Positions 22,922-59,864 of a stretch of 64,000 nucleotides of DNA are shown here, one piece after another. The stretch's first letter is position 1. Each line of letters starts with the position of its first letter. The notes below the pieces were generated by a model. The model had not been told where the DNA came from and ran no database searches. It saw only the letters and a program-made list of their open reading frames with translations. Source of the DNA: an uncultured Dehalococcoidales bacterium (lineage in GTDB: Bacteria; Chloroflexota; Dehalococcoidia; GIF9; UBA5629); NCBI GenBank assembly GCA_964549635.1, contig CAZJVJ010000002.1, positions 40,567 to 104,566 on the forward strand. Reading direction: 5' to 3'. The translations under genes and the position numbers were made by a program.

Positions 22922-24304
22922 ATGCGAATTCTGCAACAGATGAAGCAATTTATGGAGCCACAATCAGTGGCCCTCATCGGGGTATCACGCTACACTGGCG
23001 AAGGCACTTTTAATGTGCTGGAGAACCTGCTTAGCTATGGCTACAAGGGCAGAATCTATCCGGTTAACCCAAGCGTTAGTGAAATACTTGGTATGAAAAC
23101 TTATTCCAAAGTCACTGAGATAAATGAACCTGTTGACTTAGCAGTGTTAACAACACCGCGCGTCTTGGTGCCTTCTCTGCTGAAAGAATGTATCTCAAGC
23201 AATATTAAATCAGCGATAGTAGTAGCCCAAGGCTTTTCTGATGCTCGTGACATGGAAGGCAGGGAACTTCAAAATGAGTTGAACAGTATTGTGGAAAGCA
23301 AACAAATACGAGTGGTTGGGCCTAACACCTTTGGCACTGCCAATGTGTTCATCAATTTTAGCTCATCATTTGTAAAAATAAGAATGAAAAGGCAGCCAGT
23401 CGGTATCATTTGCCAGACAGGAGTCTTTTTCATTGGCTTTTCGGAGATGACGTTCATAGGTAAAGGTATTGACCTGGGTAATGCCTGCGATATTAAATTT
23501 TCTGATTGTTTAGAATATTTTGAGCACGATGTGGAAACGAAAGTAATAGCCCTTCATATCGAAGGTATGCAGGATACGCAGGGTTTCATTAACGTTTGTA
23601 AACGCATCGCCCCCAAGAAGGCCATAATAGCATTGAAAACCGGAAAAAGCGAGCTTGCCGCTAAGGCAGTCCAATCTCATACCGGTTCTATTGCAGGTAA
23701 GAAGGAAGTTTGGGACATAGCCTTGAAGCAATCCGGTGTAATTTCAGTAGCTGATTTAGAGGAGCTTATCGATTTGACCAGAGCATTCTGCATACTGCCC
23801 CCTATGGAGACGCCCAAGGTCGGCGTTATCACTATCACTGGTGGCTTGGGTGTTATGGCCATAGATGCCTGTCGGAACTCGGTTGTAAGGATAGATACGC
23901 TATCACCAAAGACAAAAAGTTTACTGAATGCCATGTCGCCTGTCTGGCTTAGCGTTGGAAATCCAGTAGACATTTGGCCGGCAATGATGACATCACAAAT
24001 ACCACTAAGACCGCTGATAGATGGCCTAAAAATCCTTCTATCGGACTCTGACATAGGCGCAGTTCTGTTTATAGGAGCCGCTTTTGACGAAAAATGGGGT
24101 AGCGGCATTTGTCAGCTTTTGACCGAGCTGGCTACGGCATATGAAAATAAGCCTTTAGTATGTTGTATTTATGGACCTTACGCCGCTGAAACTGTAGAGA
24201 GGCTACAAAGTGAAGGAAAAGTGGTAGGTTTTGCAACCCCTGAAAGAGCTATGAGAGCGCTTATCCGACTCTACGAATATTCAGAATTACGAAAAGGGCT
24301 CTAA
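22922..24304 (+). CDS. ADP-forming acyl-CoA synthetase, alpha subunit
   Basis: 460 aa with 'SVALIGVSR', 'GRIYPVNPSVSEILGMKTY' and the phosphohistidine loop 'AVQSHTGSIAGK'. The size matches archaeal ACD alpha subunits. Confidence 0.75.
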   Translation: MRILQQMKQFMEPQSVALIGVSRYTGEGTFNVLENLLSYGYKGRIYPVNPSVSEILGMKTYSKVTEINEPVDLAVLTTPRVLVPSLLKECISSNIKSAIVVAQGFSDARDMEGRELQNELNSIVESKQIRVVGPNTFGTANVFINFSSSFVKIRMKRQPVGIICQTGVFFIGFSEMTFIGKGIDLGNACDIKFSDCLEYFEHDVETKVIALHIEGMQDTQGFINVCKRIAPKKAIIALKTGKSELAAKAVQSHTGSIAGKKEVWDIALKQSGVISVADLEELIDLTRAFCILPPMETPKVGVITITGGLGVMAIDACRNSVVRIDTLSPKTKSLLNAMSPVWLSVGNPVDIWPAMMTSQIPLRPLIDGLKILLSDSDIGAVLFIGAAFDEKWGSGICQLLTELATAYENKPLVCCIYGPYAAETVERLQSEGKVVGFATPERAMRALIRLYEYSELRKGL

Positions 24305-24988
24305 GATAACCCTGGCATCAACCGCAACGGCCCCATTTTTATAGGCAAAAATCGGGTTAAGGTCGAGCTCCTTTATCTCCGGGTTATTCTGGACAAAATC
24401 AGAAACCTTTAATATCAAATCTTCCAAAAACTCAATATCTGCTGGCTCTTGCCCCCTATAACCTTCAAGCAGAGGGTATCCTTTTATCTCCCGTATCATC
24501 TCTCTGGCATCTCTCTTAGCCAGTGGAACAATCCTGAAAGCTACATCCTTCAATACCTCTACTAACACTCCTCCCAAGCCAAACATCAGCACTGGCCCGA
24601 ACTGTGCGTCTTTTGTCATACCTATGATTATCTCTATTCCAGGACGTGCCATCTTCTGTACAGAGACCCCATGAATTTTTGCCACGGGATTATGTTTCTT
24701 AATGCTAGCGAGAATCTCGCTGTATGCGTTTCCCACCTGGGTAGCATTTTTTAAGTTGAGTTTGACACCGCCAGAATCGCTTTTGTGGATAATATCAGGT
24801 GAGACTATTTTAAGTACCACGGGGAACCCCATGCTTTTGCTAAGAGCTACAGCTTCCTTCTTGGCTCGTGCCAGCTTGGCCTCAACAACAGGTATCCCAG
24901 CTTCCTTAAGCCATTCTTTGGACTCAATTTCGGTCAATTGTGTCCTGTTCTCTTTTCTGGCCAGTTTTAATATCTCGTTCTTCTTCAT
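24287..24988 (-). CDS. ADP-forming acyl-CoA synthetase, beta subunit (ATP-grasp)
   Basis: 233 aa with 'FPVVLKIVSPDIIHKSDSGGVKLNL' and 'ELDLNPI'. Convergent with the alpha gene; the 3' ends overlap by 18 nt. Confidence 0.75.
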   Translation of the reverse strand: MKKNEILKLARKENRTQLTEIESKEWLKEAGIPVVEAKLARAKKEAVALSKSMGFPVVLKIVSPDIIHKSDSGGVKLNLKNATQVGNAYSEILASIKKHNPVAKIHGVSVQKMARPGIEIIIGMTKDAQFGPVLMFGLGGVLVEVLKDVAFRIVPLAKRDAREMIREIKGYPLLEGYRGQEPADIEFLEDLILKVSDFVQNNPEIKELDLNPIFAYKNGAVAVDARVILEPFS

Positions 24989-25236: not shown

Positions 25237-25860
25237 TTGTCGAGGCACGAAAGCTTATCCAGATTGAAAGTCCTGGGCATCGCCGGGAGTCCTCGTCGAA
25301 ACGGCAATACGGATATCCTATTGAAACAGGCAATGGCTGGTGTTACAAGTCAGGGTGCCGAGGCAAAAACAGTCATTTTAAGTGAATTGAATATTTTCCC
25401 TTGCCGGCACTGCGATGGTTGTATTAAAACAGGCAAGTGTGTGATAAATGATGATATGCAATGGTTGCACAACGACCTAAGAGAGGCTGACCGGGTGATT
25501 CTAGCGTCACCCATTTTTTTCATGGGGGTTACTGCTCAAACAAAAGCTATGATTGACCGCTGTCAGGCATTGTGGGTGATAAAATATGTTCTTAAACTTC
25601 CAGTGGCAACTGACCCTGAAAAAGGGCGCAGAGGCATCTTCGTTTCGGTAGGTGGGACGAAGCTTCGTAACTTATTCCAGCCAGCGATAGCTACGGTCAA
25701 AAGCTGGTTTACAACACTAGAAGTCAAATATGCGGGTGAATTAGTTTTCCCAGGTATAGATGAAAGAGATGCCATCTTTAAGCATCCTACGGCGATTAGA
25801 GACGCATATATTATGGGCCAAAAATTAGTCAGTAGCCTCGGTGATAAGGTAGATTTTTAA
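25237..25860 (+). CDS. iron-sulfur flavoprotein (Isf / NADPH-dependent FMN reductase family)
   Basis: 207 aa with flavodoxin-like 'GIAGSPRRNGNT' and the compact Cys motif 'CRHCDGCIKTGKC' (CX2CX2CX5C). TTG start after GGGGGGAG. Confidence 0.65.
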   Translation: MSRHESLSRLKVLGIAGSPRRNGNTDILLKQAMAGVTSQGAEAKTVILSELNIFPCRHCDGCIKTGKCVINDDMQWLHNDLREADRVILASPIFFMGVTAQTKAMIDRCQALWVIKYVLKLPVATDPEKGRRGIFVSVGGTKLRNLFQPAIATVKSWFTTLEVKYAGELVFPGIDERDAIFKHPTAIRDAYIMGQKLVSSLGDKVDF

Positions 25861-25954: not shown

Positions 25955-27397
25955 ATGGTTGGTATTAAGTCCTATGGCGCTTACATCCCGCGGTACAGAA
26001 TGAACCGCAATACTATCTTTGGAGCGGTGGGGTTTCTGGGTACATTTCCAACACCTGGCGAGAAAGCGGTTGCCAATCACGATGAGGATACCCTTAGCAT
26101 GGCGGTAGCTGCTGGGATCGACTGCATCGATGGGCTGAAAAGAGAAGTAATAGATGGTTTGTATCTTGCTACTACCAGTCAGCCATATGTGCTGAGACAA
26201 AACTCGGCGATAGTTGCTGTTGCTCTTGATTTGCAGCCTAATATAAGGACAGCTGATTTCATCGCCTCCAACAAGGCGGGTACTACTGCTCTCATTGCTG
26301 CCTTTGACGCTGTAAAGGGGGGTACCTCGAGCAATATTTTAGTCTGCGCTTCAGATTGCCGACTGAGCAAGCCTGGTGGTCCTCAGGAACATCTGTATGG
26401 TGACGGCGCTGCAGCTTTATGGGTAGCGAATGACGATGTAATTGCTACTTTCGAGGGTTTTTATTCTGTTTCCTACGATTTCCCGGACCGCTGGAAGGCA
26501 AGCACCGAGGACTTTGAACATGCTTGGGAAGATAGATTCATTCGGGACGAAGGCTATACAAAAATGATACCCGAAGCAATTGCTGGCCTACTTAAGAAGT
26601 ATAATTTGAACATAAGGGAATTTGCCAAAATTGCGTTTCCCGGTATTTATGCCAGAGAGCATGCCGGTATTCTCAAAAGACTGGGTGCAGAACCGGGCCA
26701 AAGTCAGGATACCTTAATTGACAAAGTTGGTGATACCGGGACAGCTTCACCCTTAATGATGCTTGTAGCTGCGCTAGAGGATGCCAAACCTGGAGACAAG
26801 ATTCTGGTTGCCAGCTTTGGTAACGGCAGTGATGCCCTGTTTTTCCAAGTGACCGAAAATATAAAGAACGTAGGCGAGAGGCGTGGAGTGAAGAAACATT
26901 TGGTTTCAAAAAAGGAGCTCACCAGCTATGAAAAATATCTGGCTTTCCGTAAGTTAGCGCCGATGGACGTTGGCCTTCGGGGTGAGGTAGGCATTCGCAC
27001 CCCAATGTCTGCACTATATAGGGAACGAAAGACGATCCTAGGCTTGGTTGGCTCCAGGTGTAAAAAGTGTGGCACTCCGCAATATCCACCTCAAAGAGTT
27101 TGCGTCAACCCTGATTGTGGATCTGTGGATGAGATGGAAGACTATCGCTTTTCAGATAAGAAGGGCGTTGTGTTTACTTATACTGGAGACAATTTAGCTG
27201 CAAGTATTGACCCACCGTCAATTTATGGTCTGGTGGATTTTGAAGCTGGTGGAAGGTACTGGTTTGATTTTACAGATTGCGACCTTGACTCAGTTAGAGT
27301 AGGTATACCTGTGGAGATGACCTTTCGCAAAAGGTATGCGGACGAACCAACAGGTGTATATGGTTATTCTTGGAAGGCAACACCTATACGTGACTAG
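25955..27397 (+). CDS. HMG-CoA-synthase-like thiolase-fold domain fused to a DUF35 zinc-ribbon/OB-fold domain; catalytic residues apparently substituted
   Basis: The N-terminus 'MVGIKSYGAYIPRYRM' and overall pattern are HMGCS-like. The C-terminal 'CKKCGTPQYPPQRVCVNPDCGS' plus OB region matches DUF35. The Glu/Cys/His positions read T74/N106/P229 by eye alignment to MvaS. Confidence 0.7.
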   Translation: MVGIKSYGAYIPRYRMNRNTIFGAVGFLGTFPTPGEKAVANHDEDTLSMAVAAGIDCIDGLKREVIDGLYLATTSQPYVLRQNSAIVAVALDLQPNIRTADFIASNKAGTTALIAAFDAVKGGTSSNILVCASDCRLSKPGGPQEHLYGDGAAALWVANDDVIATFEGFYSVSYDFPDRWKASTEDFEHAWEDRFIRDEGYTKMIPEAIAGLLKKYNLNIREFAKIAFPGIYAREHAGILKRLGAEPGQSQDTLIDKVGDTGTASPLMMLVAALEDAKPGDKILVASFGNGSDALFFQVTENIKNVGERRGVKKHLVSKKELTSYEKYLAFRKLAPMDVGLRGEVGIRTPMSALYRERKTILGLVGSRCKKCGTPQYPPQRVCVNPDCGSVDEMEDYRFSDKKGVVFTYTGDNLAASIDPPSIYGLVDFEAGGRYWFDFTDCDLDSVRVGIPVEMTFRKRYADEPTGVYGYSWKATPIRD

Positions 27398-27432: not shown

Positions 27433-28635
27433 ATGGCAGAAGGCATTAAAGACAAGGTAGCTATTATAGGTATGGGATGTACTAAATTTGGAGAACTGTG
27501 GGACAAGAGCGCTGAGGATTTGATGGTTGATGCGTTTAAGGAATGCATTGAGGATGCGGGGATAGATAAGAAAGACCTTCAGGCTGCTTGGTTTGGGGTA
27601 CACTTTGAAGAGCAAAGTGTCGGCAAAGGCGCCACATCCTTGGCGCTGGCACTTAAGTTGCCCTTTATTCCGGTCACACGGACAGAAAACTTTTGTGCTA
27701 CCGCAACCGAAGCTTTCAGAGGTGCCTGTTACGCGGTGGCTTCTGGGGCTTATGACATTGTGCTTGCGTTAGGCGTGGAGAAGCTCAAGGATACTGGATA
27801 TGGTGGACTTCCTGGTGGCCCTGGTTTGATGGGGACGAGAAATGCACTTATCATGCCCAAGCTGACTGCCCCGGGGGCTTTTGCTATGATGGCTACTAGA
27901 TATTTTGCCGTGTATGGGCTCAGTCCGGAGGAAGGCAAAAGGATGTTGGCTAAGGTGTCAGTCAAAAGTCATTACAATGGAGCCAGGAATCCAAAGGCAC
28001 ACCTGCGCCGCGAGATAACTGAAGAGCAGGTGGTTAACGCCCCTATTATTGCTTGGCCGCTTGGGCTTTTCGACTGCTGTGGAGTGAGTGATGGCGCGGC
28101 AGCAGCAATTGTTACTCGAGCCGACATGGCTAAAAATTTCAGGCCTGACCCTGTATATGTGAAAGCGCTCCAGGTTGCCGTAAGTTCAGGTGAAGAGTTG
28201 ATGTATACCAAGTGGGATGGCGCTCATGTTGAGACGGGGTACCGGGCCGGAGTCCTTGCTTACAAAGAGGCTGGTATCAAGAATCCGCGCCAGGAGATAA
28301 GTATGGCCGAGGTACACGACTGCTTTTCGATTACTGAAGCAGTAACAATGGAGGATTTGCAGTTCAGCCCCAGAGGAAAGGTTAAAGAAGATATTGAATC
28401 TGGTCGCTTTAATATTAATGGAGAGCAACCTATCCAGCCTGATGGTGGCTTGAAATGCTTTGGGCATCCTATTGGCGCTTCTGGGTTGAGAATGCTGTAT
28501 GAAATGTACAAGCAGTTACAGGGGAAGGCTCAGTTGCCCGAGCGCCAGATAAAGAATCCCAAACTGGGTCTCACTCATAACATGGGTGGCTTCCCGGCGA
28601 TGAATATAGTCAGCGTGGCTATCGTCGGACTGTAA
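27433..28635 (+). CDS. SCP2-type (nonspecific lipid-transfer-protein-like) thiolase
   Basis: 400 aa with nucleophile region 'ENFCATATEAF', 'VHDCFS' (the HDCF motif of SCP2 thiolases), 'CFGHPIGASG' and 'HNMGG'. Confidence 0.8.
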   Translation: MAEGIKDKVAIIGMGCTKFGELWDKSAEDLMVDAFKECIEDAGIDKKDLQAAWFGVHFEEQSVGKGATSLALALKLPFIPVTRTENFCATATEAFRGACYAVASGAYDIVLALGVEKLKDTGYGGLPGGPGLMGTRNALIMPKLTAPGAFAMMATRYFAVYGLSPEEGKRMLAKVSVKSHYNGARNPKAHLRREITEEQVVNAPIIAWPLGLFDCCGVSDGAAAAIVTRADMAKNFRPDPVYVKALQVAVSSGEELMYTKWDGAHVETGYRAGVLAYKEAGIKNPRQEISMAEVHDCFSITEAVTMEDLQFSPRGKVKEDIESGRFNINGEQPIQPDGGLKCFGHPIGASGLRMLYEMYKQLQGKAQLPERQIKNPKLGLTHNMGGFPAMNIVSVAIVGL

Positions 28636-29758: not shown

Positions 29759-30538
29759 ATGGGAAAACTTGATGGAAAGGTAGCAGTTATTACCGGAGCG
29801 GCAAGGGGTATAGGCGAAGCTGATGCGGTATTGTTTGCCAAAGAGGGCGCTGCTGTTTTGTTGAGCGACATTGATGAAGCTCCGCTAAAGGAAGTGGTTC
29901 AGAAGATAAGGGCTGCTGGTGGAAAGGCCGAAGCTTGTGCCGGCGATGTTACGAAACCGGAGGATTGCCAGAGGATGATGGATATGGCAGTCGAGAAATT
30001 CGGCAAAATCGATATCCTAGTCAACAATGCCGGGCTTACCAGAGATGCCTTAATACATAAGATGACTGATGCCCAGTGGGACTTGTGCATCAACATTAAC
30101 CTTAAGGGGACTTTCAATTGCATTAGAGCTGCTTCCAAATATATGATGAAGGAAGGGCATAACGGAAGAATAATCAATGTTGCCTCTGTGGCCGGACTAA
30201 TGGGCAATGTAGGGCAGATAAACTATTCTGCGGCTAAGGCAGGTCTTATTGGGCTCACCAAAACCGTGGCCAGGGAATGGGGTAGATACGGTATTACTTG
30301 CAATGTTATAGCTTATGGTTTCGTTGATACGCGGTTGACAAGAGAGAAGGAAGTACAGCAAGAGGAAGTAGCTGGTGAACTAGTAGGTATACCAAAGAAA
30401 GTGAGGGATATGGTTCTTTTGCAAGTTAAGCCTATGACACCTGAAGATGCTGCCAAACCTGTACTTTTCTTGGCTTCTGATGATGCTGCTTTTATCACAG
30501 GCCAGGTATTGAACGTTTCAGCCGGAATGTATATGTAG
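29759..30538 (+). CDS. short-chain dehydrogenase/reductase (FabG-like 3-oxoacyl reductase / hydroxyacyl-CoA dehydrogenase)
   Basis: 259 aa with 'TGAARGIGEA', 'NNAG' and 'YSAAKAG'. Confidence 0.8.
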   Translation: MGKLDGKVAVITGAARGIGEADAVLFAKEGAAVLLSDIDEAPLKEVVQKIRAAGGKAEACAGDVTKPEDCQRMMDMAVEKFGKIDILVNNAGLTRDALIHKMTDAQWDLCININLKGTFNCIRAASKYMMKEGHNGRIINVASVAGLMGNVGQINYSAAKAGLIGLTKTVAREWGRYGITCNVIAYGFVDTRLTREKEVQQEEVAGELVGIPKKVRDMVLLQVKPMTPEDAAKPVLFLASDDAAFITGQVLNVSAGMYM

Positions 30539-30631
30539 TTTTACCATCTAGCCTGTTGGGGACATCGGGCTTATTGATGAGATAACAACTACGGGTGGGC
30601 AACAACCGAAATAAATATGAGGAGGCCTGAG

Positions 30632-45255: not shown

Positions 45256-45256
45256 A

Positions 45257-52482: not shown

Positions 52483-52582
52483 CTGGTTACCTCCTAGTCT
52501 ATTTCATGAAGTCTTTATATAAGCTGCGCAGCACCATTTGTGTAAACATCTAAAATAGCGTAAGTGGACATAATTTCCAGCT

Positions 52583-53779
52583 CTATCCACGAGGTAATCC
52601 GAGTCCTCTCATAGCGATGATGTTTCGCTGGATTTCAGAGGTACCAGCACCGACGAGGGCAGAAATACAATCCAGGTACCCGGCTTGGACTCTGCCCCTT
52701 AGAGCTGCCCACTTAGCATTTTTTTCCAGTAGCCCGTAATGACCCAGGATCTGCATTCCAGCGCTGGCTAACTTTTGGCTAAGCTGGGTGGTGAACAGCT
52801 TCAGCACAGAGGCTTCAATGTTCGGGACGAGGCCTTTGTCTAGCATCCAGGCCGTTTGCCAGAAGAACATGTAGGCGACCTCAATCTCGATTGCCGTGGA
52901 AGCTAACAGGTTCTTAACCATGGGGTCTTGGCTTAAGGTGCGGCCGTCTAGTTTTGTTTCTTTGGCATACTGGACTATCTCTTCGAACGTTCGCTTAAAG
53001 CCTCCAATGGGAATTACAAGTCTCTCAAAATCTAAGGCTACCATTACATAGTACCAACCCTTGTTCTTTTCGCCCACGATGTTCTTTTTGGGTACGCGTA
53101 CATTGTCAAAAAATACTTCATTGAAGGAATGGGTACCGCAGATGTTTATCAAAGGCCGGATAGTAACGCCCGGAGACTTATTGTCCACTATAAGCAGTGT
53201 AATTCCTTTGTGGGGAGCAGCATTGGGGTCTGTTCTGACAATCATCCAGGCATAATGCGATACATGGGCAGCCGTACTCCAGATTTTCTGTCCGTTGATA
53301 ACAAGGTAATCACCATCCTCCACAGCACGGGTTTGAATGGAGGCAAGGTCGGAGCCGGCATTTGGCTCGCTATAGGCGAGCCAGAAACGCACCTCACCTC
53401 GGGCTATTCTAGGGAGCCATTCCTTTTTCATCTCGTCGTTACCAAATAGCATAATCGTTGGTCCGCCAATGAGCGTGGCTACTTCACCGCTAGGCGCCCT
53501 GTAATAGCTCATTCGCTCATGGAAGATGGCTTGTTCAATATTGGAGCGGCCAGCTCCACCGTATTCTTTAGGCCACGAAATAGTAAGCCAGCCTTTCTGG
53601 GCTAGTTTGTGTCTGAACATTTCTATCTGAATGTTGATCTCTTCAAATTCTGATAGCGTGCCATATCCGCCGGGCCAGTAGATGGTTTTCTCAGCCCAGT
53701 CCGGCGGCAGTTCCTGCTTTATAAAGTCTTCGACTTCTTTTCGAAATGCCTCTTCCTTCTCACTGAAACGGAAGTCCAT
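52583..53779 (-). CDS. acyl-CoA dehydrogenase, class A
   Basis: 398 aa with 'MDFRFSEKEEAFRKEV', 'ALDFERLVI' (IVD-position Glu) and 'GAGTSEIQRNII'. Confidence 0.8.
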   Translation of the reverse strand: MDFRFSEKEEAFRKEVEDFIKQELPPDWAEKTIYWPGGYGTLSEFEEINIQIEMFRHKLAQKGWLTISWPKEYGGAGRSNIEQAIFHERMSYYRAPSGEVATLIGGPTIMLFGNDEMKKEWLPRIARGEVRFWLAYSEPNAGSDLASIQTRAVEDGDYLVINGQKIWSTAAHVSHYAWMIVRTDPNAAPHKGITLLIVDNKSPGVTIRPLINICGTHSFNEVFFDNVRVPKKNIVGEKNKGWYYVMVALDFERLVIPIGGFKRTFEEIVQYAKETKLDGRTLSQDPMVKNLLASTAIEIEVAYMFFWQTAWMLDKGLVPNIEASVLKLFTTQLSQKLASAGMQILGHYGLLEKNAKWAALRGRVQAGYLDCISALVGAGTSEIQRNIIAMRGLGLPRG

Positions 53780-53817
53780 GTTGTGTTGCCCTTTCCTTAA
53801 AGCCGGTGTTGTGCTTA

Positions 53818-55005
53818 CTATCGAGGTAACCCTAAACCTCTCACCGCAATAATGGTACGCTGGATCTCGTTAGTACCACCGCCCACGCCTATTGAAACTG
53901 AGCTTAGGTACATACGCATTATCATAGCATTGAGGGGAGCCCATTTGGATTCTCTGTCCAGTGCACCATAGTGTCCTAGGATGCGCATTCCAACATCAGC
54001 CACTCGCCTCGTTACTTCGCTACTAAAAACCATTGCCATGGATGATTCGTAGCTTGGGTGAAGGTTCTTACTGTACATCCAGGCGATGCGGTAACACATC
54101 ATTCTGAGGACTTCATTTGCGACTGTTACTTCTGCCAGTGCGTTTCTAATAAGCGGGTCATTGGCGATTGGTTCGCCGTTAACCTTGGTTTCTTTGGCAT
54201 ATTTAACCAGTTCCTCGATGACTCTTTGCTGTGCCGCTGCGGTGCCGACTGATGAGCGCTCATAGTCTAGAGCTATAACCAGTTGATACCAGCCGTTGTT
54301 TTTCTGCCCTACCAGGTTTTCTTTAGGAATGCGTACATCATCGAAGAAAACCTCATTAAACGAGTGGCGGTTCAAGATGTTTATCAAAGGACGAATAGTA
54401 ATCCCTGGTGTCTTCATGTCAACAATAAACATGCTGATCCCTTTATGCTTAGGGGCATTCGGGTCAGTTCTGGCAGCTAGCCAGCAATAGTCAGCTAAGT
54501 GACCGTAGCTACACCATATCTTCTGGCCATTGATCACATAGTAGTCACCGACTTCGACAGCGCGGGTCTGGAGTGCAGCAAGGTCGGACCCTGCGTTTGG
54601 TTCGCTATACCCAAGACAGAAGATGATATCACCTTTTGCCACCCGGGTTACATAGTCCTTTTTTTGTTTCTCAGTCCCGAAGAGCATTATGGTGGGGGCA
54701 ACCCAGTTGACTGTTATCTCTACTTCAACGCTTACTGGTGCTCTGTTGTATGCTAACTCTTCGGCAAGAATGAGCCGTTTTGTATGGCTCAATTCCAAGC
54801 CACCGTACTCCTTAGGATATGCTGGTGCCAGCCAGCCTTTTTGGCCAAGTTTGCGATGAAACTGACGAGAAATTGCCCAGGACTCTTCTGTTTCCTCCCA
54901 CACGCCAGGGGAAAGTTCAAACCACCTTGGCGGGATTTCCTTTTTTAGCCACTCACGCACCTCTTGCCTGAATGCCTCCTCCTCCTCGGAGAATCTGAAA
55001 TCCAT
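53818..55005 (-). CDS. acyl-CoA dehydrogenase, class A
   Basis: 395 aa with 'MDFRFSEEEEAFRQEV', 'ALDYERSSV' (IVD-position Glu) and 'GGGTNEIQRTII'. Confidence 0.8.
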   Translation of the reverse strand: MDFRFSEEEEAFRQEVREWLKKEIPPRWFELSPGVWEETEESWAISRQFHRKLGQKGWLAPAYPKEYGGLELSHTKRLILAEELAYNRAPVSVEVEITVNWVAPTIMLFGTEKQKKDYVTRVAKGDIIFCLGYSEPNAGSDLAALQTRAVEVGDYYVINGQKIWCSYGHLADYCWLAARTDPNAPKHKGISMFIVDMKTPGITIRPLINILNRHSFNEVFFDDVRIPKENLVGQKNNGWYQLVIALDYERSSVGTAAAQQRVIEELVKYAKETKVNGEPIANDPLIRNALAEVTVANEVLRMMCYRIAWMYSKNLHPSYESSMAMVFSSEVTRRVADVGMRILGHYGALDRESKWAPLNAMIMRMYLSSVSIGVGGGTNEIQRTIIAVRGLGLPR

Positions 55006-55040: not shown

Positions 55041-55274
55041 CTATTCAATAATGGCTATAATGTCACCCTCTAAGATGGAATCGCCTTCTTTCACCCTGAT
55101 TTCTGCCACCGTGCCATTATAGGGTGCTTTCACTCGGATTTCCATTTTCATAGATTCGAGTATGACAATAGTTTCACCCTCATTGACTTTCGCACCAACC
55201 TCTGCCAGGATTTTCCAGACACTGCCTGTTATTGGTGAAGCAACTTCTTTCATGGCTATTTTAATTCGGTTCAC
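55041..55274 (-). CDS. stand-alone biotin carboxyl carrier protein (biotinyl domain only)
   Basis: 77 aa with 'ILESMKMEIRV', containing the biotinyl-Lys M-K-M motif. The GTG start overlaps the upstream stop (GTGA). Confidence 0.8.
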   Translation of the reverse strand: MNRIKIAMKEVASPITGSVWKILAEVGAKVNEGETIVILESMKMEIRVKAPYNGTVAEIRVKEGDSILEGDIIAIIE

Positions 55275-56137
55275 TCGTTCTTTGTTTCACTCAGCCCCAG
55301 AATGACTTTTGCCTCCTCCACTGTAGCTGGCTCTCTGCCGATATCTCGCGTCATCCTTACTGCTTTCTCCACCAGTGGGCCGTTTCCCTCTGCCATTATG
55401 CCGGGTGCTAGATAGAAATTATCCTCCAGTCCGACCCTAACATTGCCACCAAGAGCCAGCGCAGTGGCTACCAGCAACCATTGCTCCTCGCTGATACCTA
55501 TTACCTGCCACTGTGTTCCCTGAGGGACTACACTAGAAACGTGGGCTAAATTTCTAGCCGTGGCAGCCATCCCTCCCACTACGCCGAAAATAAGGCTTAC
55601 TTGAAAGTTCTTAAGCAACCCCATGTCAATCAGCGGAAATAGGCTCTCCAGATGTCCGAGGTCAAAGCATTCGCATTCTGGCTTTACCCCACTCTTGTTC
55701 ATGGTGTCCAAAAAAAACATTATATCGTCGAATGGGTTTTGGAAGACTACAGAGAAAACGAAATTCTTTCGCCTTGGACTGTACTTGGCATAGTTCATTG
55801 TTCCCATATTAAGTGCTGCAATTTCCGGCTTCAGTTCACGGATGTGAGCGATTCTGTTTTCCCTGTCGATGCCTACAGCACCAGTAGAGAAGTTTATTAT
55901 GATGGGACATCTTTTCCTCACCTCGTCCATGATTTCCTTAAAAATTTCCACCCTCCATGACGGCCTGCCATCGTATTCTCTACCGTGGATGTGTACCACG
56001 GAAGCTCCGGCATTGTAAGCTCTTAGTGCCTCGTCAGCAATTTCCTGTGGGGTATAAGGTATCCATTTGCACTGGTCTCTGTTAGCTGCTACACCGGTCA
56101 AAGCAGCAGTGATAACTACCTTGTCTTGCAGCCCCAT
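55271..56137 (-). CDS. BKACE-family (beta-keto acid cleavage enzyme, DUF849) TIM-barrel protein
   Basis: 'VVITAALTGV...PYTPQEIADEALRAYNAGASVVHIHGRE' carries the H-x-H metal motif. I prefer ATG 56137 (GAGAGGAG upstream, 19 nt after the crotonase stop) over 56191. Confidence 0.75.
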   Translation of the reverse strand: MGLQDKVVITAALTGVAANRDQCKWIPYTPQEIADEALRAYNAGASVVHIHGREYDGRPSWRVEIFKEIMDEVRKRCPIIINFSTGAVGIDRENRIAHIRELKPEIAALNMGTMNYAKYSPRRKNFVFSVVFQNPFDDIMFFLDTMNKSGVKPECECFDLGHLESLFPLIDMGLLKNFQVSLIFGVVGGMAATARNLAHVSSVVPQGTQWQVIGISEEQWLLVATALALGGNVRVGLEDNFYLAPGIMAEGNGPLVEKAVRMTRDIGREPATVEEAKVILGLSETKNE

Positions 56138-56156: not shown

Positions 56157-56942
56157 TTATTTTCCTTTCCAAACTGGTTCTCGCTTCTCAAGAAAAGCGG
56201 CTATACCTTCAGCTACGTCTTCGGCCATAGTGTTGACAGCCAGCATTGAGGCCAGATATTCCAGAGCTTTTTCATATTCCATATCTCGCATGGTGTAGAA
56301 AGCTCTTCTACCAAGCCTCAGAATGGCTGGGCTTTTGTTGACTATTTTCTTGGCGACCTCTTCAACTTTTGCATCTAACTGTTCCCTGGGCACGACATAG
56401 TTCACCAGCCCGAGCTCCTGGGCTTCTTTGGCATCTACTCTTTCACCGGTCAGCATTATTTCTAGAAGCCGTTTGGGGGATGAGGTGAACTTAATCAAGG
56501 TAGCCATGATGATGTAAGGGAACAGTCCCACGTTTATCTCCGGGGTTCCAAAGCGGCAATCGTCAGCCGCGATTACTATGTCACAAGCTGCAGCTAGTCC
56601 AAGGCCACCACCGAGGGCGTGACCATTTATCCGGCCAAGCAGCGGTTTCTTAAGTCCGCGGATCAACTTAAAGAGCTCGGCAAAATTCCTCTGACCTTCG
56701 TAACGGTCAAGAAAAGTTGTTGGGGTGCCCATCGATTCTGCAAAGTCAGCACCGGCGCAGAAAACTTTGCTACCAGCTCCTGTTAGCACAATAACTACTG
56801 TTGACGGGTCCTCGTCATATTGCTTGAAGGCATTCAGCAGTTCAACTAACATTGTTGGGGTTATGGCATTCCTGCGCTCTTCGCGAGACAAGGTGATTGT
56901 AGCTACTTTATCTGTAACGGCGGTTGTTATGGTTTGATACAT
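56157..56942 (-). CDS. enoyl-CoA hydratase/isomerase (crotonase) family
   Basis: 261 aa with 'LTGAGSKVFCAGADF', 'INGHALGGGLGLAAACD' and 'FGTPEINVGLFP'. Confidence 0.85.
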   Translation of the reverse strand: MYQTITTAVTDKVATITLSREERRNAITPTMLVELLNAFKQYDEDPSTVVIVLTGAGSKVFCAGADFAESMGTPTTFLDRYEGQRNFAELFKLIRGLKKPLLGRINGHALGGGLGLAAACDIVIAADDCRFGTPEINVGLFPYIIMATLIKFTSSPKRLLEIMLTGERVDAKEAQELGLVNYVVPREQLDAKVEEVAKKIVNKSPAILRLGRRAFYTMRDMEYEKALEYLASMLAVNTMAEDVAEGIAAFLEKREPVWKGK

Positions 56943-56953: not shown

Positions 56954-58525
56954 TTATACCGGGTAGACTCCATGCTTTCTCGGATGTCGATATATCTTCT
57001 TATCTTTTGTAAACTCAAGGGCTCGGATTAAGACCCTTCTAGTTTCTCTGGGGTCAATAACGTCATCTACGAAGCCAAGTCTGGCTGTCTTATAGATGTT
57101 AATCTGCGGCCTTATCTCGTCGGCAAGGCGTTCTATCATTTCCTGAGGGTTTTCAGCCTCAGCTATTTGTTTTCTAGCGAAGATAGACACCATGCCTTCA
57201 GGCCCCATAACTGCTATTTCAGCTCCCGGATAGGCGATCAGCAGGTCGGGATCAAAAGATCTGCCACACATAGCGTAATAGCCGGCGCCGTAGGCTTTTC
57301 TGGCAATTAGGGTAAATTTGGGGACGGTAGCTTCAGCTACAGCATGAATCATTTTAGCACCGTGTCTAATTATCCCAGACCTTTCTGCCTTGGACCCTAC
57401 CATAAAGCCAGGAACATCGGCTATGAAGAAAAGTGGAATATTAAAAGCATCGCACAGCCAGATGAAACGAGCAGCTTTGTCAGCAGCATCTATGTCAATA
57501 ACTCCACCGTAGAAGAGAGGGTTGTTGGCAACAAATCCTACTGAATAGCCAGCTATCCTGCCGAATCCGACAATAATATTTCTGCCCCATTTTGGCTTAA
57601 TCTCGAAGAAGTAGCCATCGTCAACTATATATTTTATCAGGTCATGCATATCGTAGGCTTCTCGACGATTGTCCGGTATGACATTTAATATACCATCGGA
57701 GATCAAGGCTTCGGGGTCTCCAGTCCACTCTTTTCTGAGCGGTTTCTGGTCGCAGTTCTGGGGGAAAAAGGAGAGATACTGTTTTATGACTTTAATACAT
57801 TCCTCGTCGTTAGCTACTTCCAGATCACCGCAACCACTTATCTCACAGTGGATCTTAGAGCCGCCCAGTTCGTCTTCAGTTAAAGTTTCCTTGATGACCA
57901 TTTTTACAAGGGATGGTCCCCCGAGTCCCATAAAGCTGGTTCCTTTAACCATGGGTACGAAATCGGAAAGTCCAGGGATATAAGCGGTGCCAGCATAACC
58001 TGGGCCCATCATAGCGCACACAAGGGGAATTACTCCTGACATCAATGATTCTTCCTTAAAAAGGTACCCAGAATCGGCAAACATGGCTACCCGTTCACCA
58101 GAGAGACCTCCACCGCTCACTCTGGCACCACCGGAGTCACTCAGCCATATCATGGGGATTCTCTCCTTAAGGGCGATTTCTCTTATTCTGGTTACTTTAA
58201 TCTCGTTGACTACGCCCATGGAGCCGCCTCTAACAGTGAAGTCATAGGCTGCAACAGCTACATCTCTAAGCCTAATACCATCATTCAGCTTGCCATACCC
58301 GGTAATGCATCCGTCTGCCGGAACAAGTTCAGGCACACCAAACTCGCTACCGAGCATACCAATTTCAACAAATGTTCCCTTTTCAATTAAAAGGTCAATC
58401 CGTTCTCTGGCCGTTAATTTTCCTCTTTCATGATGTTTTTTGACAGCCTCTTCGCCGCCCATCTTCATGATTTCAGCGCGGAGTTCCTGAAGCTTTTTAA
58501 CTTCCTGTTTCATCCATTCACCCAT
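56954..58525 (-). CDS. acyl-CoA carboxylase carboxyltransferase (beta) subunit, specificity unresolved
   Basis: 523 aa with 'GKLTARERIDLLIEKGTFVE', 'DFTVRGGSMG', 'SDSGGARV' and 'ELGGSKIH'. The start overlaps the biotin carboxylase stop by 8 nt. Confidence 0.8.
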   Translation of the reverse strand: MGEWMKQEVKKLQELRAEIMKMGGEEAVKKHHERGKLTARERIDLLIEKGTFVEIGMLGSEFGVPELVPADGCITGYGKLNDGIRLRDVAVAAYDFTVRGGSMGVVNEIKVTRIREIALKERIPMIWLSDSGGARVSGGGLSGERVAMFADSGYLFKEESLMSGVIPLVCAMMGPGYAGTAYIPGLSDFVPMVKGTSFMGLGGPSLVKMVIKETLTEDELGGSKIHCEISGCGDLEVANDEECIKVIKQYLSFFPQNCDQKPLRKEWTGDPEALISDGILNVIPDNRREAYDMHDLIKYIVDDGYFFEIKPKWGRNIIVGFGRIAGYSVGFVANNPLFYGGVIDIDAADKAARFIWLCDAFNIPLFFIADVPGFMVGSKAERSGIIRHGAKMIHAVAEATVPKFTLIARKAYGAGYYAMCGRSFDPDLLIAYPGAEIAVMGPEGMVSIFARKQIAEAENPQEMIERLADEIRPQINIYKTARLGFVDDVIDPRETRRVLIRALEFTKDKKIYRHPRKHGVYPV

Positions 58526-59864
58526 TTTTTGCCTCCAATAACTTTGGTATAAAGTGTGTATCGTAGGTTCCTGATTTGAACATGGCAGAATGAAAGGCTT
58601 TTTTCAGAAATGGGATATTGTTTTTAATGCCAGTTATTTCATAATTTTCCAGAGCTTTAAGCATTCTCTCGATTGCTTTATCCCTATTTTCACCCCAAAC
58701 AATTAGCTTTGCAATCAGAGGGTCGTAAAACTGACTAATAGTATCACCAGCTTTATATCCGGAATCGACTCTTATTCCGTCCCCCACTGGTTCCACATAC
58801 GACAGCAGTTTACCTGGTGATGGATAGAATTTTTCTGAGTCTTCAGCATAAATTCTGGCTTCAATGGCCCAGCCTTTCCATTTTATCTCCTCGTCCTTAA
58901 TAGACAAAGGCTGTCCCGAGGCAATTTCGATTTGTTTTTCAACTAGGTCAAATCCAGTGATCATCTCTGTGATCGGATGTTCTACCTGAAGCCTGGTATT
59001 TATTTCCAGGAAGTAAAAGTTTCGGTTTTTGTCGACCACGAACTCTATCGTGCCGGCATTAGTGTATCCAAGCTCCTGAGCTAGCGTCTTGGCTGCCCGT
59101 CTCAGCCCGGTTCGAAGCTCCGGAGTGGCGAATGGTGATGGTGATTCTTCGATTACCTTTTGATGTCGTCTTTGGACTGAACATTCTCTTTCCGGGAAGG
59201 TAACCACATTGCCACTATGGTCTGCTAATACTTGTATTTCTATGTGATGAGGAGATTCCAGATACTTCTCTATGTAGACTCTTTCATCACCGAAAGCCAA
59301 TCTAGAACGATTTGTGGCTTGCTCAAAAGCTTCAGCTATATCCTCCATTCGCTCTACTTTCTGCATCCCTATTCCACCACCGCCGGCTGATGCCTTGAAG
59401 ATAACAGGGAGAGAGAGTCTTTCTGCCCATTCTTTTGCCTCTTCAGCATTGCGCAATATATTGCTACCAGGCGGTATGGGGATACCCAAACTAGTAGCAA
59501 TTTCTCTGGAGCGTGCCTTATCGCCCATTCTGTGGATGACTTGAGATTTTGGGCCGATAAAAATTATTCCCTCCCTCTCACATCTCTCAGCAAATTCCCA
59601 TCTTTCAGAAAGGAAACCATATCCGGGATGAATAGCCTCTACGTTTAGTTCCTTGGCAATAGCAATAATATTGTCAATGTTAAGGTAACTATCTTTGGGT
59701 CTTGGACCGCCAACATTTACAGCTTTATCCGCTTCTTGGACAAACAGGGCTTGCTCATCAATGTCTGAGTAGATGGCTATGGTTTTAATGCCTAACTTTT
59801 TGGCAGTTCTGATTACACGCCTCGCAATCTCCCCGCGGTTAGCAACGAGTATGGATTTAAGCAT
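58518..59864 (-). CDS. biotin carboxylase (stand-alone, no fused BCCP)
   Basis: 448 aa with 'ILVANRGEIARRVIRT', 'IHPGYGFLSE', 'KASAGGGGIGM' and 'EINTRLQVEHPITE'. Confidence 0.9.
   Translation of the reverse strand: MLKSILVANRGEIARRVIRTAKKLGIKTIAIYSDIDEQALFVQEADKAVNVGGPRPKDSYLNIDNIIAIAKELNVEAIHPGYGFLSERWEFAERCEREGIIFIGPKSQVIHRMGDKARSREIATSLGIPIPPGSNILRNAEEAKEWAERLSLPVIFKASAGGGGIGMQKVERMEDIAEAFEQATNRSRLAFGDERVYIEKYLESPHHIEIQVLADHSGNVVTFPERECSVQRRHQKVIEESPSPFATPELRTGLRRAAKTLAQELGYTNAGTIEFVVDKNRNFYFLEINTRLQVEHPITEMITGFDLVEKQIEIASGQPLSIKDEEIKWKGWAIEARIYAEDSEKFYPSPGKLLSYVEPVGDGIRVDSGYKAGDTISQFYDPLIAKLIVWGENRDKAIERMLKALENYEITGIKNNIPFLKKAFHSAMFKSGTYDTHFIPKLLEAKNG

Follow-up and report, generated by a model that had tools for sequence, protein, structure and literature searches.

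A carboxylase-BKACE cassette is found as part of a recurring unit over several phyla, consisting of a Liv-type importer with a FadD11-like ligase, ACADs, and the gene series biotin carboxylase (BC), carboxyltransferase (CT), crotonase (ECH), BKACE and biotin carboxyl carrier protein (BCCP). The cassette is widely conserved and uncharacterised. It resembles the methyl-carboxylation pathway for leucine and terpenes, but has another cutting enzyme and appears to contain a new CT lineage. The whole block in which it lies is probably best described as a mosaic of at least six transcription units for the import of organic acids, their activation with CoA and their breakdown, where the cassette would be a Liu/Atu-like route for 3-methyl-branched acyl-CoAs; we give this reading an about even chance of being right.

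The stretch of DNA analyzed, in the following called the window, is 64 kb long and comes from a sediment-type, anaerobe-type member of the Dehalococcoidia (Chloroflexota). Genes were identified by an ORF listing combined with Pfam and NCBIfam scans of the window, which gave an uninterrupted run of 33 genes at 22922-59864, all concerned with acyl-CoA chemistry or Liv-type import (Table 1). The widest intergenic gap within the block is 403 bp. Housekeeping genes (AlaRS, shikimate genes, Tgt, AspRS, trigger factor and ThiD2-ThiE) are found to the left and tRNA-Pro and PpiC to the right, so that the cluster has sharp borders and is not a chance assembly. An initial annotation, made from the sequence alone, had counted about 35 consecutive acyl-CoA genes, among them two AMP-forming ligases, two Liv-type importers and five ACADs; all the listed items were recovered by the profile scans where it had placed them, while the count becomes 33. 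It had overlooked BKACE (DUF849), the 70-aa biotin carrier, the PhlA/HMGCS-like-DUF35 fusion, the FMN-reductase-like flavoprotein, the FabG-like SDR and the Pro-rich lipoprotein. As it had also stated, no HTH, ETF, integrase or transposase domain was found by Pfam or NCBIfam among the 33 genes. An Rfam scan gave no riboswitch. Gene identities and operon layout are thus established.

Table 1. Genes and gene groups of the acyl-CoA block, numbered as in the window.
Feature	Position	Strand	Basis
ADP-forming acyl-CoA synthetase alpha subunit, CoA_binding + Succ_CoA_lig	22922..24304	+	Pfam
ADP-forming acyl-CoA synthetase beta subunit, ATP-grasp_5	24287..24988	-	Pfam PF13549, 299 bits
FMN_red/iron-sulfur-flavoprotein-like, CxxCxxC motif	25237..25860	+	Pfam, sequence
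PhlA/HMGCS-like domain fused to DUF35 (zf-ChsH2 + OB)	25955..27397	+	Pfam, solved relatives
SCP2/PhlC-type thiolase	27433..28635	+	NF004810, 631 bits (cut-off 403); Pfam
Hotdog (R)-hydratase subunit, FAS1_DH_region	28663-29142	+	Pfam
Hotdog (R)-hydratase subunit, MaoC	29177-29647	+	Pfam
FabG-like SDR	29759..30538	+	Pfam/NCBIfam
MFE-2-type (3R)-hydroxyacyl-CoA dehydrogenase SDR	30617..31567	+	Solved relatives
ACAD pair, PimC-like large subunit	31758-32975	+	NCBIfam
ACAD pair, PimD-like small subunit	32995-34149	+	NCBIfam
Importer 1 part 1: 596-aa binding lipoprotein with extra C-terminal domain, two permeases	34375..38184	+	Pfam
Importer 1 part 2: LivF-like ATPase, LivG-like ATPase, FadD-like acyl-CoA ligase	38199..41428	-	Pfam/NCBIfam
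FadD-like AMP-forming acyl-CoA ligase	39713-41428	-	In importer 1
Importer 2: LivG, ligase, two permeases, two binding proteins, Pro-rich lipoprotein, LivF	41593..51169	+	Pfam
FadD11-like AMP-forming ligase, 655 aa, inside importer 2	42377-44344	+	Pfam
Pro-rich lipoprotein, importer 2	48964-50040	+	
PimD-like small ACAD subunit	51349-52482	-	NCBIfam
ChsE4/PimC-like large ACAD subunit	52583-53779	-	NCBIfam
ChsE4/PimC-like large ACAD subunit	53818-55005	-	NCBIfam
BCCP, 70 aa, ESMKME motif	55041..55253	-	
BKACE (DUF849), Zn-dependent TIM-barrel enzyme	55271..56137	-	PF05853, 314 bits
Crotonase-family enoyl-CoA hydratase	56157..56942	-	Pfam/NCBIfam; 5zai, 169 bits
CT, putative distinct lineage	56954..58525	-	Pfam, tree, active-site loops
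Stand-alone BC, AccC-like, 448 aa, without fused BCCP	58518..59864	-	Pfam/NCBIfam

Promoter-like sites are found before the synthetase alpha gene (22851-22880), divergently between the two importers (41486-41457 on the minus strand, 41514-41543 on the plus strand) and ahead of the BC gene (60035-60007, minus strand, 11/12 consensus positions), while a terminator-like hairpin (51231-51255) lies past importer 2. The two importers together have four binding proteins, four permeases and four ATPases. In about 35 metagenome loci, part 1 of importer 1 is accompanied by FadD-LivG-LivF.

The best 36 of 80 genome loci are from Dehalococcoidia/Chloroflexota MAGs, with 80-91% identity. Among the relatives found, only the closest locus, L089 (89% identity), keeps the full order of the block. 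Importer 2 and the carboxylase operon, together 18.6 kb, are absent between identical flanking genes, FadD and unk181/PpiC, in seven other relatives (L090, L092, L093, L097, L103, L105, and L126). The gene set past importer 1 differs among L097, L105, L108, L126, and L130, and the cassette has other neighbours in L006-L037. The operons are thus shuffled independently in relatives, and the block is not a single conserved pathway.

The initial annotation had instead read the 37 kb as a single pathway whose substrate has methyl branches alternating between alpha and beta positions, such as phytanate/pristanate-like or archaeal-lipid acids, so that both sets of branch-handling enzymes would be needed. 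All modules are indeed adjacent both here and in L089, the MFE-2-like and the carboxylase sets are both plausible tools for branched chains, and heteromeric steroid-type ACADs are found in both modules. However, in relatives at 75-86% identity synteny is broken at every module boundary, and outside the window the modules stand together in this order only in L089. The pathway chemistry also speaks against it: if an isoprenoid acid were broken down by way of carboxylation, its methyl group would be at C5, and then again at C3 after one ordinary round of beta-oxidation. No 2-methyl intermediate would arise, and tools for alpha- and beta-branches would therefore not be required side by side. The alternating substrate is left without support, and we consider a single pathway very unlikely.

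The cassette itself is widely conserved. The CT gene is adjacent in 56 of the 80 BKACE loci, and the order BC-CT-ECH-BKACE-BCCP is kept in Dehalococcoidia, in Syntrophomonadaceae/Bacillota and in one MAG labelled Desulfovibrio, while one Actinomycetota MAG has the five genes rearranged. The 70-aa BCCP is found at the equivalent position in about 40 loci, and synteny of the cassette with the three ACADs at 51349..55005 extends to most Dehalococcoidia loci. The cassette is followed by a FadD11-like ligase or an entire importer in L023, L040-L051, L079, and L168; the complete ligase-in-importer unit is downstream in L023, L079, and L168, and only the ligase in the Bacillota loci. In L057, L063, and L071, a lone BKACE relative of about 60% identity lies among housekeeping genes, and BKACE-ECH pairs without any carboxylase exist as well. 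Among the papers searched that mention BKACE, none describes such an enzyme embedded between biotin carboxylase subunits.

In Desulfobacterota (L079 and L168-L170) the order is (MerR or TetR)-ACAD-ACAD-CT-BC-BCCP-ECH-BKACE-MaoC-ACAD. The BKACE of these loci is 59-61% identical to that of the window, while the CT has the MCC motif FGAGNYGMCGRAY and belongs to the MCC/GCC clade in 100/100 bootstraps. The order of the liu operon is liuRABCDE, and the Desulfobacterota cassette mirrors it, with BKACE replacing liuE (HMG-CoA lyase). The Liu/Atu-type look that had been ascribed to the carboxylase and crotonase genes of the window is borne out by this orthologous cassette, with its MCC/GCC-clade CT and its MerR/TetR gene. 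Full equivalence is not: neither an HMGL- nor a CitE-type lyase was found in the window, in the 80 loci or in L168-L170, and BKACE holds the slot of the HMG-CoA lyase.

The likely start of BKACE is Met19 of the ORF 55271-56191, its homologues being 285-293 aa long. It scores 269 bits against the Kce equivalog of NCBIfam, below the cut-off of 382, and the other equivalog cut-offs are not reached either. The best solved relatives give only 157-180 bits, while identity is 57-71% to the relatives that sit in cassettes of other phyla. The catalytic residues of BKACE15 from Paracoccus have been described together with a crystal structure with acetoacetate and acetyl-CoA bound (PMC11961710), and alignment to the reported residues shows that the HxH motif and the equivalents of E171, R254, and E258/D259 are all retained. 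The crotonase has kept both catalytic glutamates (motifs PEINVG and LLEIMLTG), and the best solved relative of the ACAD at 53818-55005 is ChsE4-ChsE5 (4x28, 240 bits).

The window CT is 44-45% identical to PCC/ACC enzymes (1x0u 456 bits, 1vrg 452, S. coelicolor PccB 398) and 35-38% to MCC/GCC enzymes (268-275 bits), and mmdA is the sole NCBIfam model above noise. In neighbour-joining trees with few references it is found on the PCC side, yet outside the PCC clade, which is recovered in 100/100 bootstraps. The two BKACE-linked groups of non-MCC CTs are jointly monophyletic in only 26/100 bootstraps. The GGA loop reads GAG, as in MCC, within GAG-Y-Y-x-MCGR; there is an AGTAYIP loop and an insertion after DSGGAR. 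GAG, MCGR, AG(T/G)AYIP, and a tyrosine at the position of D422 in S. coelicolor PccB are shared by the window CT and MCC-type enzymes; D422 marks the specificity position, which is Ile in acetyl-accepting enzymes. The CT thus seems to represent a new lineage with MCC-like active-site loops, and neither of the placements foreseen by the initial annotation, PccB or MccB/AtuC, applies.

These scores, the mmdA match, the position on the PCC side and the separate BC and BCCP, as in Thermotoga/Sulfolobus-type enzymes, are what would be expected from an ordinary acetyl/propionyl-CoA carboxylase handling propionyl-CoA from odd-chain or 2-methyl-branched beta-oxidation, with the crotonase, BKACE and ACADs mechanistically unlinked to it. 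We find this unlikely, given the position outside the PCC clade, the MCC-type tyrosine and GAG loop, and the MCC-type CT within the equivalent architecture in Desulfobacterota. The crotonase and BKACE genes moreover lie between BCCP and BC-CT, in an order kept across phyla, and no methylmalonyl-CoA epimerase or mutase was found in the entire 64-kb window.

From the gene content we infer that the recurring cassette breaks down 3-methyl-branched acyl-CoAs by a Liu/Atu-like route ending in acetoacetate. The acid would be activated with CoA by the ligase and oxidized to a 3-methyl-2-enoyl-CoA by the heteromeric ACAD, the biotin carboxylase system would carboxylate the methyl (gamma) carbon, and hydration by the crotonase would give a 3-hydroxy-3-alkylglutaryl-CoA, which BKACE would cleave. 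The products of a lyase-type cleavage would be a beta-keto acid and acetyl-CoA, and as these are both substrates of BKACE, the acyl group could be returned to CoA and acetoacetate freed. The shortened acyl-CoA would then enter further beta-oxidation. An alcohol dehydrogenase is not part of the conserved cassette core, which fits a tertiary alcohol that needs to be cleaved and not oxidized. Against this route, no BKACE is known to act on a tertiary alcohol of the HMG-CoA type, the window CT is overall nearer to PCC/ACC than to MCC/GCC, BC and BCCP are two small proteins of the archaeal/Thermotoga acetyl/propionyl-CoA carboxylase type and not a fused MCC alpha subunit, and the ACADs are ChsE/PimCD-like, not IVD-like.

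Since all canonical residues are kept, BKACE may carry out the known beta-keto-acid:acetyl-CoA reaction on some keto acid. It could then be the entry step, converting a free beta-keto acid, imported or made elsewhere, and acetyl-CoA to acyl-CoA and acetoacetate, or work in the decarboxylating/biosynthetic direction. In the former case the ACADs, crotonase and carboxylase would process the acyl-CoA in a valine/isobutyryl-CoA-like manner, ending in carboxylation of propionyl-CoA. The carboxylase-free BKACE-ECH pairs, the BKACE genes of this clade that stand alone and the ABC importer linked to the cassette would agree with this. However, the cassette is conserved along with an acyl-CoA ligase of its own, so the free acid is presumably activated by ATP and not by BKACE; the valine-type steps after hydration (a hydrolase and two dehydrogenases) are missing, and the MCC-type CT in Desulfobacterota indicates gamma-carboxylation of an enoyl-CoA. 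BKACE as entry enzyme is thus distinctly unlikely.

The left part of the block contains the ADP-forming acyl-CoA synthetase and the MFE-2-like set, both of which had been recognized in the initial annotation and are confirmed here. The alpha subunit scores 356 bits against TIGR02717, below the cut-off of 567, and the convergent alpha and beta genes overlap by 18 bp; the enzyme would convert a product thioester to ATP. The best solved relatives of the MFE-2-type SDR are 2et6 (348 bits), human HSD17B4 (1zbq, 225 bits), 1gz6 (220 bits), and 3oml (211 bits). The PhlA/HMGCS-like-DUF35 fusion is related to PhlA-type 9skh (121 bits), archaeal HMGCS (6esq_I, 120 bits), and DUF35 (6esq_E, 64 bits), and adjoins the thiolase in L108, L126, and L130 as well. 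Its catalytic cysteine is replaced by serine ('TADFIASNKAGT' vs 'ADLEFACKAGT'), and it is therefore probably a scaffold partner of the SCP2-type thiolase. Together with the heteromeric ACAD pair (31758..34149), the hotdog hydratases and the two SDRs, these proteins would make up an (R)-specific beta-oxidation module of their own, acting on bulky or branched acyl-CoAs.

Compared with the Liu (liuRABCDE, leucine/isovalerate, Pseudomonas) and Atu (acyclic terpene) systems, the order of ACAD, CT, BC/BCCP, crotonase and TIM-barrel enzyme is nearly identical, a ligase is linked, and the final enzyme is a metal-dependent TIM-barrel C-C cleaver with acetoacetate as the expected product. Unlike in those systems, the window CT is not of the MccB/AtuC clade, the BC and BCCP are separate, the ACADs are heteromeric and ChsE/PimCD-like, BKACE stands in for the absent HMGL-family lyase, and a regulator is found only in the Desulfobacterota relatives, the window having no LiuR/AtuR. 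L086 is an atu-like locus for comparison. With the BKACE/DUF849 family (Kce of lysine fermentation, BKACE15, and the triacetate- and 3-oxoadipate-cleaving enzymes) the window enzyme shares a full-length PF05853 domain, HxH and Glu as Zn ligands, the Glu171 and Arg254 equivalents, and the expected product acetoacetate, but differs by its place between subunits of a biotin carboxylase system. The CT resembles S. coelicolor PccB, T. maritima 1vrg, and S. tokodaii 1x0u in length, domain layout and separate BC/BCCP, while its position in the tree, its tyrosine and the lack of a nearby epimerase/mutase set it apart from PCC/ACC beta subunits. The left module has the heteromeric ACAD, hotdog pair, (3R)-dehydrogenase, SCP2-type thiolase and DUF35 domain of peroxisomal MFE-2/SCPx and steroid side-chain beta-oxidation (ChsE, ChsH1-ChsH2, Hsd4A, Ltp2/FadA5); unlike in the actinobacterial steroid system, DUF35 is fused to a PhlA/HMGCS-like domain and not to a MaoC subunit, and there are no other steroid genes. 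As in PhlACB and the archaeal thiolase/HMGCS/DUF35 complex, KAS-III/HMGCS-like, DUF35 and SCP2-type thiolase folds are found side by side, and the serine is shared with PhlA, but here the first two are fused in one 480-aa protein in a catabolic context of ACADs, hydratases and SDRs.

The block at 22922-59864 comprises 33 tightly packed genes according to the ORF listing (see table). Scans with Pfam and NCBIfam confirmed each of the elements listed in the initial annotation, and its statement that the block is devoid of regulators, ETF, integrases and transposases holds as well, as the block genes carry no HTH, ETF, integrase or transposase domains. No riboswitch was found in an Rfam search. 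Pfam recognized both subunits of the ADP-forming acyl-CoA synthetase, the alpha subunit by its CoA-binding and ligase-CoA domains and the beta subunit as ATP-grasp_5, and the acetate-specific equivalogs scored below their cut-offs. A second alpha paralogue lies 7.4 kb upstream of the block, surrounded by housekeeping genes. The acyl-CoA dehydrogenases (ACADs) are of two types in NCBIfam, PimC-like "large" and PimD-like "small". Promoter and terminator scans gave site totals not above those of shuffled controls, and sites in intergenic gaps alone were used, as weak support for operon borders. The best promoter- or terminator-like sites in such gaps lie before 22922, 25955, 41428(-), 41593 and 59864(-). 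Together with a strong hairpin after importer 2 they are consistent with at least six transcription units.

Features of the block and its flanks (positions in the window)
Feature	Position	Strand	Remark
ADP-forming acyl-CoA synthetase alpha paralogue	13997-15481		CoA_binding_2 + Succ_CoA_lig
Tandem small Zn-ribbon ORFs, then ThiD2-ThiE fusion gene	20111-20858 and 20830-21894		FmdB-like, PF09723; just upstream of block
AlaRS, shikimate-pathway genes, Tgt, AspRS, trigger factor, ThiD2-ThiE	left flank
ADP-forming acyl-CoA synthetase alpha	22922-24304	+
ADP-forming acyl-CoA synthetase beta	24287-24988	-
KAS-III/HMGCS-like domain fused to DUF35	25955-27397		gene before thiolase
SCP2-type thiolase	27433-28635		NF004810, 631 bits (cut-off 403)
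Two hotdog hydratase subunits	28663-29647
Two SDRs, five ACADs, two AMP-forming ligases, two Liv-type ABC importers	within block
Importer 1	34375-41428		includes FadD-like ligase
Binding protein of importer 1	34375-36165		596 aa
Presence/absence polymorphism, 18.6 kb	41593-60190		importer 2 + carboxylase operon
Importer 2	41593-51169		includes FadD11-like ligase
Lipoprotein of importer 2	48964-50040
Hairpin	51231-51255
Carboxylase operon	51349-59864	-
ACAD	53818-55005		best solved relative ChsE4-ChsE5, heterotetrameric cholesterol side-chain enzyme
Biotinyl carrier (BCCP)	55041-55253	-	70 aa, ESMKME
Biotin carboxylase, carboxyltransferase, crotonase	56157-59864	-
181-aa lipoprotein	60191-60736		after block
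181-aa lipoprotein and PpiC genes	60191-63323
Lipoprotein, fn3 protein, tRNA-Pro, PpiC	right flank

The initial annotation had read the whole block as one supercluster serving a single substrate with alternating alpha- and beta-methyl branches. The arrangement in relatives contradicts this, and the block is very probably a mosaic of several operons. Window proteins were mapped onto 80 loci retrieved from a genome collection with the DUF849 enzyme (BKACE) of the carboxylase operon, and onto 79 loci from metagenomes with the FadD ligase as anchor; L-numbers denote such related loci. The order importer 2, FadD, importer 1, ACAD pair and SDRs is kept in L089 only (89% identity), while the unit of FadD-LivG-LivF and permease-permease-binding protein is retained in about 35 loci. 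In seven loci (L090, L092, L093, L097, L103, L105 and L126) FadD is adjoined by the 181-aa lipoprotein gene and then PpiC. Since FadD directly adjoins these genes there, the 18.6 kb that separates them in the window is missing, and it thus constitutes a presence/absence polymorphism. Neither repeats nor mobile-element genes were detected at its borders, the repeat search giving similarity between ACAD paralogues only. On the other side of importer 1 an SDR is followed directly by thiolase and HMGCS-DUF35 genes in L108, L126 and L130, while an ACAD is found in L105 and an SDR in L097. Importer 2 is kept beside the carboxylase operon in the closest loci only (L002, L004, L005 and L053). The chemistry also speaks against a shared substrate, as the carboxylation route on an isoprenoid chain would give a 3-methyl group again after one normal round of beta-oxidation and never a 2-methyl position. 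A long run of related genes is therefore not the same as one pathway; here it reflects the accretion of independently moving operons.

One of these parts is an MFE-2-like, (R)-specific beta-oxidation set, in which an MFE-2-type SDR, hotdog hydratase(s) and an SCP2-type thiolase occur together. The best solved relatives of the 316-aa SDR are the (3R)-hydroxyacyl-CoA dehydrogenase domains of MFE-2 from yeast, human, rat and fly. The HMGCS-DUF35 fusion gene had been missed by the first reading; among solved structures its product is closest to PhlA-type proteins and to the HMG-CoA synthase of the archaeal thiolase/HMGCS/DUF35 complex. A role as a true HMG-CoA synthase, making or cleaving HMG-CoA, was rejected, as the catalytic Cys is replaced by Ser like in PhlA. 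Because of this replacement the protein is more likely to be a thiolase scaffold than a synthase.

The importers share an additional domain. The lipoprotein of importer 2 carries a lipobox Cys in its signal peptide and a PPPPPPPP linker, and its C-terminal domain shows clear homology to the additional C-terminal domain (about 150 aa) of the importer 1 binding protein, as seen for instance in '...TLADGTKA...KKDDKWIMVSVGT...YDEAKFSEIVHTLQLKK' of the former and '...TLADGTKA...KKADKWIIVTITT...YDEAKFSEIARTLEFKK' of the latter. The 181-aa lipoprotein looks similar to this domain as well. Pfam gives only a weak PsbP_2 match, and the domain may be an accessory ligand-capture domain of both importers.

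The minus-strand operon is ordered biotin carboxylase (BC), carboxyltransferase (CT), crotonase, BKACE, BCCP and three ACADs. Neither the BKACE gene nor the small BCCP gene, found by a six-frame motif search, had been noticed initially. A CT gene adjoins BKACE in 56 of the 80 loci, and the 36 closest loci belong to MAGs of Dehalococcoidia/Chloroflexota from lake, aquifer and sediment samples (80-91% identity). The exact window CT protein is also encoded by a 6-kb NCBI metagenome contig. Dehalococcoidia share the order BC-CT-crotonase-BKACE-BCCP with Syntrophomonadaceae, other Bacillota and a Desulfovibrio-labelled MAG (protein identities 56-71%); these carry a single ACAD before the run and a FadD11-like ligase after it. 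The Bacillota ACAD was considered as a possible isovaleryl-CoA dehydrogenase, but is generic (275 bits for IVD against 321 for the best match). In L039, an Actinomycetota MAG, the five genes are ordered crotonase-BKACE-BCCP-BC-CT. In a second group (Myxococcota, other "delta" MAGs and some Bacillota) the genes run ACAD(-ACAD)-crotonase-CT-BKACE, and the CT shares about 50% identity with that of the window. A ligase-containing Liv importer is kept next to the cassette in L023, L079 and L168. As the five core genes travel together and are linked to an importer and ligase, the functional unit in the window is importer 2 plus the carboxylase operon, and not the whole 37 kb.

Additional genes are found around some of the cassettes. 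A second, divergent BKACE paralogue (29-35% identical), which the window lacks, is present in L002-L005, where it separates the small ACAD from LivF of importer 2, and in L019, L021, L022 and L034. In L019 and L021 this paralogue is the first gene of a BKACE-MaoC-DUF35-thiolase-thiolase set, and a CT-crotonase-BKACE-ACAD cassette lacking BC and BCCP in its vicinity follows immediately downstream. Next to the cassette, L004, L005, L044, L047 and L049, thus both Dehalococcoidia and Bacillota, have two neighbouring thiolase-like genes (29-36% identity to the window thiolase), which in L044 are immediately preceded by a MaoC-like gene. This points tentatively to a downstream partner set that recurs.

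By overall similarity the window CT resembles propionyl-CoA carboxylases (PCC). Among solved structures it scores 456 bits against the S. tokodaii and 452 bits against the T. maritima enzyme (PccB-type) and about 400 bits against bacterial PccBs, while MccB (3u9r) and GccB give 275 and 268 bits. It is 44% identical to PCC enzymes, which are 57-59% identical among themselves, and 35-38% identical to MCC-type enzymes. This similarity, as well as the separate genes for BC (448 aa, without a biotinyl domain) and BCCP three genes away, would fit a plain propionyl- or acetyl-CoA carboxylase. However, in neighbour-joining trees whose few references came from annotated plasmid records and from two PDB sequences, the window-type CTs fall outside the PCC/ACC reference clade (bootstraps 100/100), and the window CT is also outside the MCC/GCC clade (100/100). 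The BKACE-linked non-MCC CTs are placed outside both, on the PCC side. The window CT is, judged by its sequence, best regarded as a third lineage, because it belongs to neither clade; the two placements predicted initially, with PCC or with MccB and AtuC, are thus both off the mark.

The active-site loops also deviate from those of a plain PCC. At Asp422 of S. coelicolor PccB the BKACE-linked CTs have YGAGYYAMCGR, where PCC has YGGAY(D/I)VM(G/A)SK and MCC (F/Y)GAGNYGMCGR, and the N-domain loop reads AGTAYIP, GGAVYSP and AGGAY(I/V)P, respectively. GAG is found in the window CT and in all 52 other aligned BKACE-linked CTs, the non-MCC ones continuing with Y(Y/F)xMCG and the MCC-type CT of L079 with NYGMCG. 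The D422 position of the window CT is a Tyr, as in MCC, and the PCC-type Asp or Ile/Leu of the GGAY(D/I)xM loop is absent. At the sequence level this is a resemblance to MCC and not membership of its clade. No alignment column behaved like the Phe-to-Gly chain-length position distinguishing MCC from GCC, with the few references used. Three further observations argue against plain propionate or acetate handling: methylmalonyl-CoA epimerase and mutase are absent from the window genes scanned, though possibly encoded elsewhere in the genome; the CT is strictly linked to crotonase and BKACE; and in Desulfobacterota an MCC-type CT is substituted.

The BKACE gene, located between those for BCCP and crotonase, is full-length, its product matching all 274 positions of the PF05853 profile with 313.7 bits (cut-off 24.8). 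Alignment to 8rio/8rip indicates that the Zn ligands (HxH, Glu) and the equivalents of Glu171 and Arg254 of BKACE15, whose roles have been described (PMC11961710), are kept. The NCBIfam equivalogs for characterised members (Kce, triacetate and 3-oxoadipate enzymes) are all below cut-off (269 vs 382, 221 vs 430 and 176 vs 350). The intact catalytic residues would allow a canonical BKACE reaction on a free keto acid as the entry step, and in other phyla (L057, L063, L071) BKACE genes of this clade stand alone among unrelated housekeeping genes. Against such an entry step stands the dedicated ligase conserved with the cassette.

There is about an even chance that the cassette instead encodes a Liu/Atu-like route. 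The ligase would convert the acid to its acyl-CoA, an ACAD would give the 3-methyl-2-enoyl-CoA, and BC, BCCP and CT would carboxylate this at the gamma position. The crotonase, which adjoins CT and retains both catalytic glutamates, would hydrate the product to a tertiary alcohol, and BKACE would cleave its C-C bond; no alcohol dehydrogenase is found in the conserved core. An HMG-CoA-lyase-type cut would yield a beta-keto acid and acetyl-CoA, the two substrates of the canonical BKACE reaction. Since BKACE15 has been crystallised with acetoacetate and acetyl-CoA bound (PMC11961710), one active site could both split the adduct and transfer the acyl group back onto CoA, with acetoacetate and a shortened acyl-CoA as products. 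The transfer step would be relevant only for an alkyl group longer than methyl. This, the extra ACAD and MaoC(-SCP2) genes in cassettes and the steroid-type heteromeric ACADs lean towards longer 3-methyl-branched acids rather than isovalerate alone, which is the weakest step of the argument. Rather unlikely, as a more far-reaching proposal, is that this BKACE clade is bifunctional, combining the retro-aldol cut of 3-hydroxy-3-alkylglutaryl-CoA with beta-ketoacyl transfer to CoA and release of acetoacetate, and that together with a new CT lineage converged on an MCC-like active site it gives the strict anaerobes among Dehalococcoidia, syntrophic Bacillota and Desulfobacterota an O2-independent way to remove 3-methyl groups from isoprenoid acids (phytanate, archaeal-lipid-derived) in sediments.

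Uncultured Dehalococcoidia are among the most abundant bacteria of anoxic sediments and aquifers, and their diet is largely inferred from gene lists. Single-cell and MAG studies of sediment Dehalococcoidia have reportedly described gene-rich beta-oxidation repertoires with ADP-forming synthetases, and the block as a whole is an ordinary example of these. Anaerobes of at least four phyla carry the cassette, and close homologues of its BKACE are very numerous in public metagenomes, with at least 8000 candidates. No description of a link between BKACE and a biotin carboxylase was found in the literature searched, and the NetSyn BKACE case study does not mention a carboxylase. A lyase-independent variant of Liu/Atu would, if true, account for O2-free mineralisation of leucine-derived or isoprenoid methyl-branched acids, extend the BKACE family, already of interest for synthetic CO2-fixation cycles, by a new type of reaction, and define a third functional lineage of acyl-CoA carboxyltransferases.

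A tblastn search with an HMGL query gave no match in the window or the 80 related loci, no HMGL Pfam domain was found on the scanned window genes, and neither an HMGL- nor a CitE-type lyase is present in the window, the 80 loci or the Desulfobacterota loci L168-L170. Such a lyase is found in L086, an ordinary atu-like comparison locus, and a canonical HmgL is in use in Desulfococcus multivorans. On plasmid pRL9 of Rhizobium leguminosarum (L085, 5772-11706) the last genes of an MCC-type carboxylase operon encode a MaoC dehydratase and a CitE-like CoA-ester lyase, which replace crotonase and HMG-CoA lyase, a further case of Liu-like hydratase and lyase slots filled by other families.

The liuRABCDE operon is ordered regulator, dehydrogenase, MCC beta, hydratase, MCC alpha and lyase. 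The Desulfobacterota operons (L079, L168-L170) have the same architecture, [MerR or TetR]-ACAD-ACAD-CT-BC-BCCP-crotonase-BKACE-MaoC-ACAD, except that the alpha subunit is split and that BKACE, 59-61% identical to that of the window, takes the place of HMG-CoA lyase. Their CT carries FGAGNYGMCGRAY and falls inside the MCC/GCC clade; as NCBIfam has no MCC- or GCC-specific models, it cannot name this operon. In L079 and L168 the operon is followed by genes for a binding protein, LivG, LivF, a FadD11-like ligase and permeases. Small genes interrupt these otherwise collinear cassettes at different positions (L079 4780-5208, L168 9594-9950), a PD-(D/E)XK_3 gene between ACAD and CT and a '23S rRNA intervening sequence protein' gene between crotonase and BKACE. 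The window cassette shares the crotonase-family hydratase with the Liu/Atu systems, while its CT lies outside the MccB/AtuC clade and a fused BC-BCCP alpha subunit is lacking. New compared with Liu/Atu are thus the lineage of the CT, the splitting of the subunits and the occupation of the lyase slot by BKACE.
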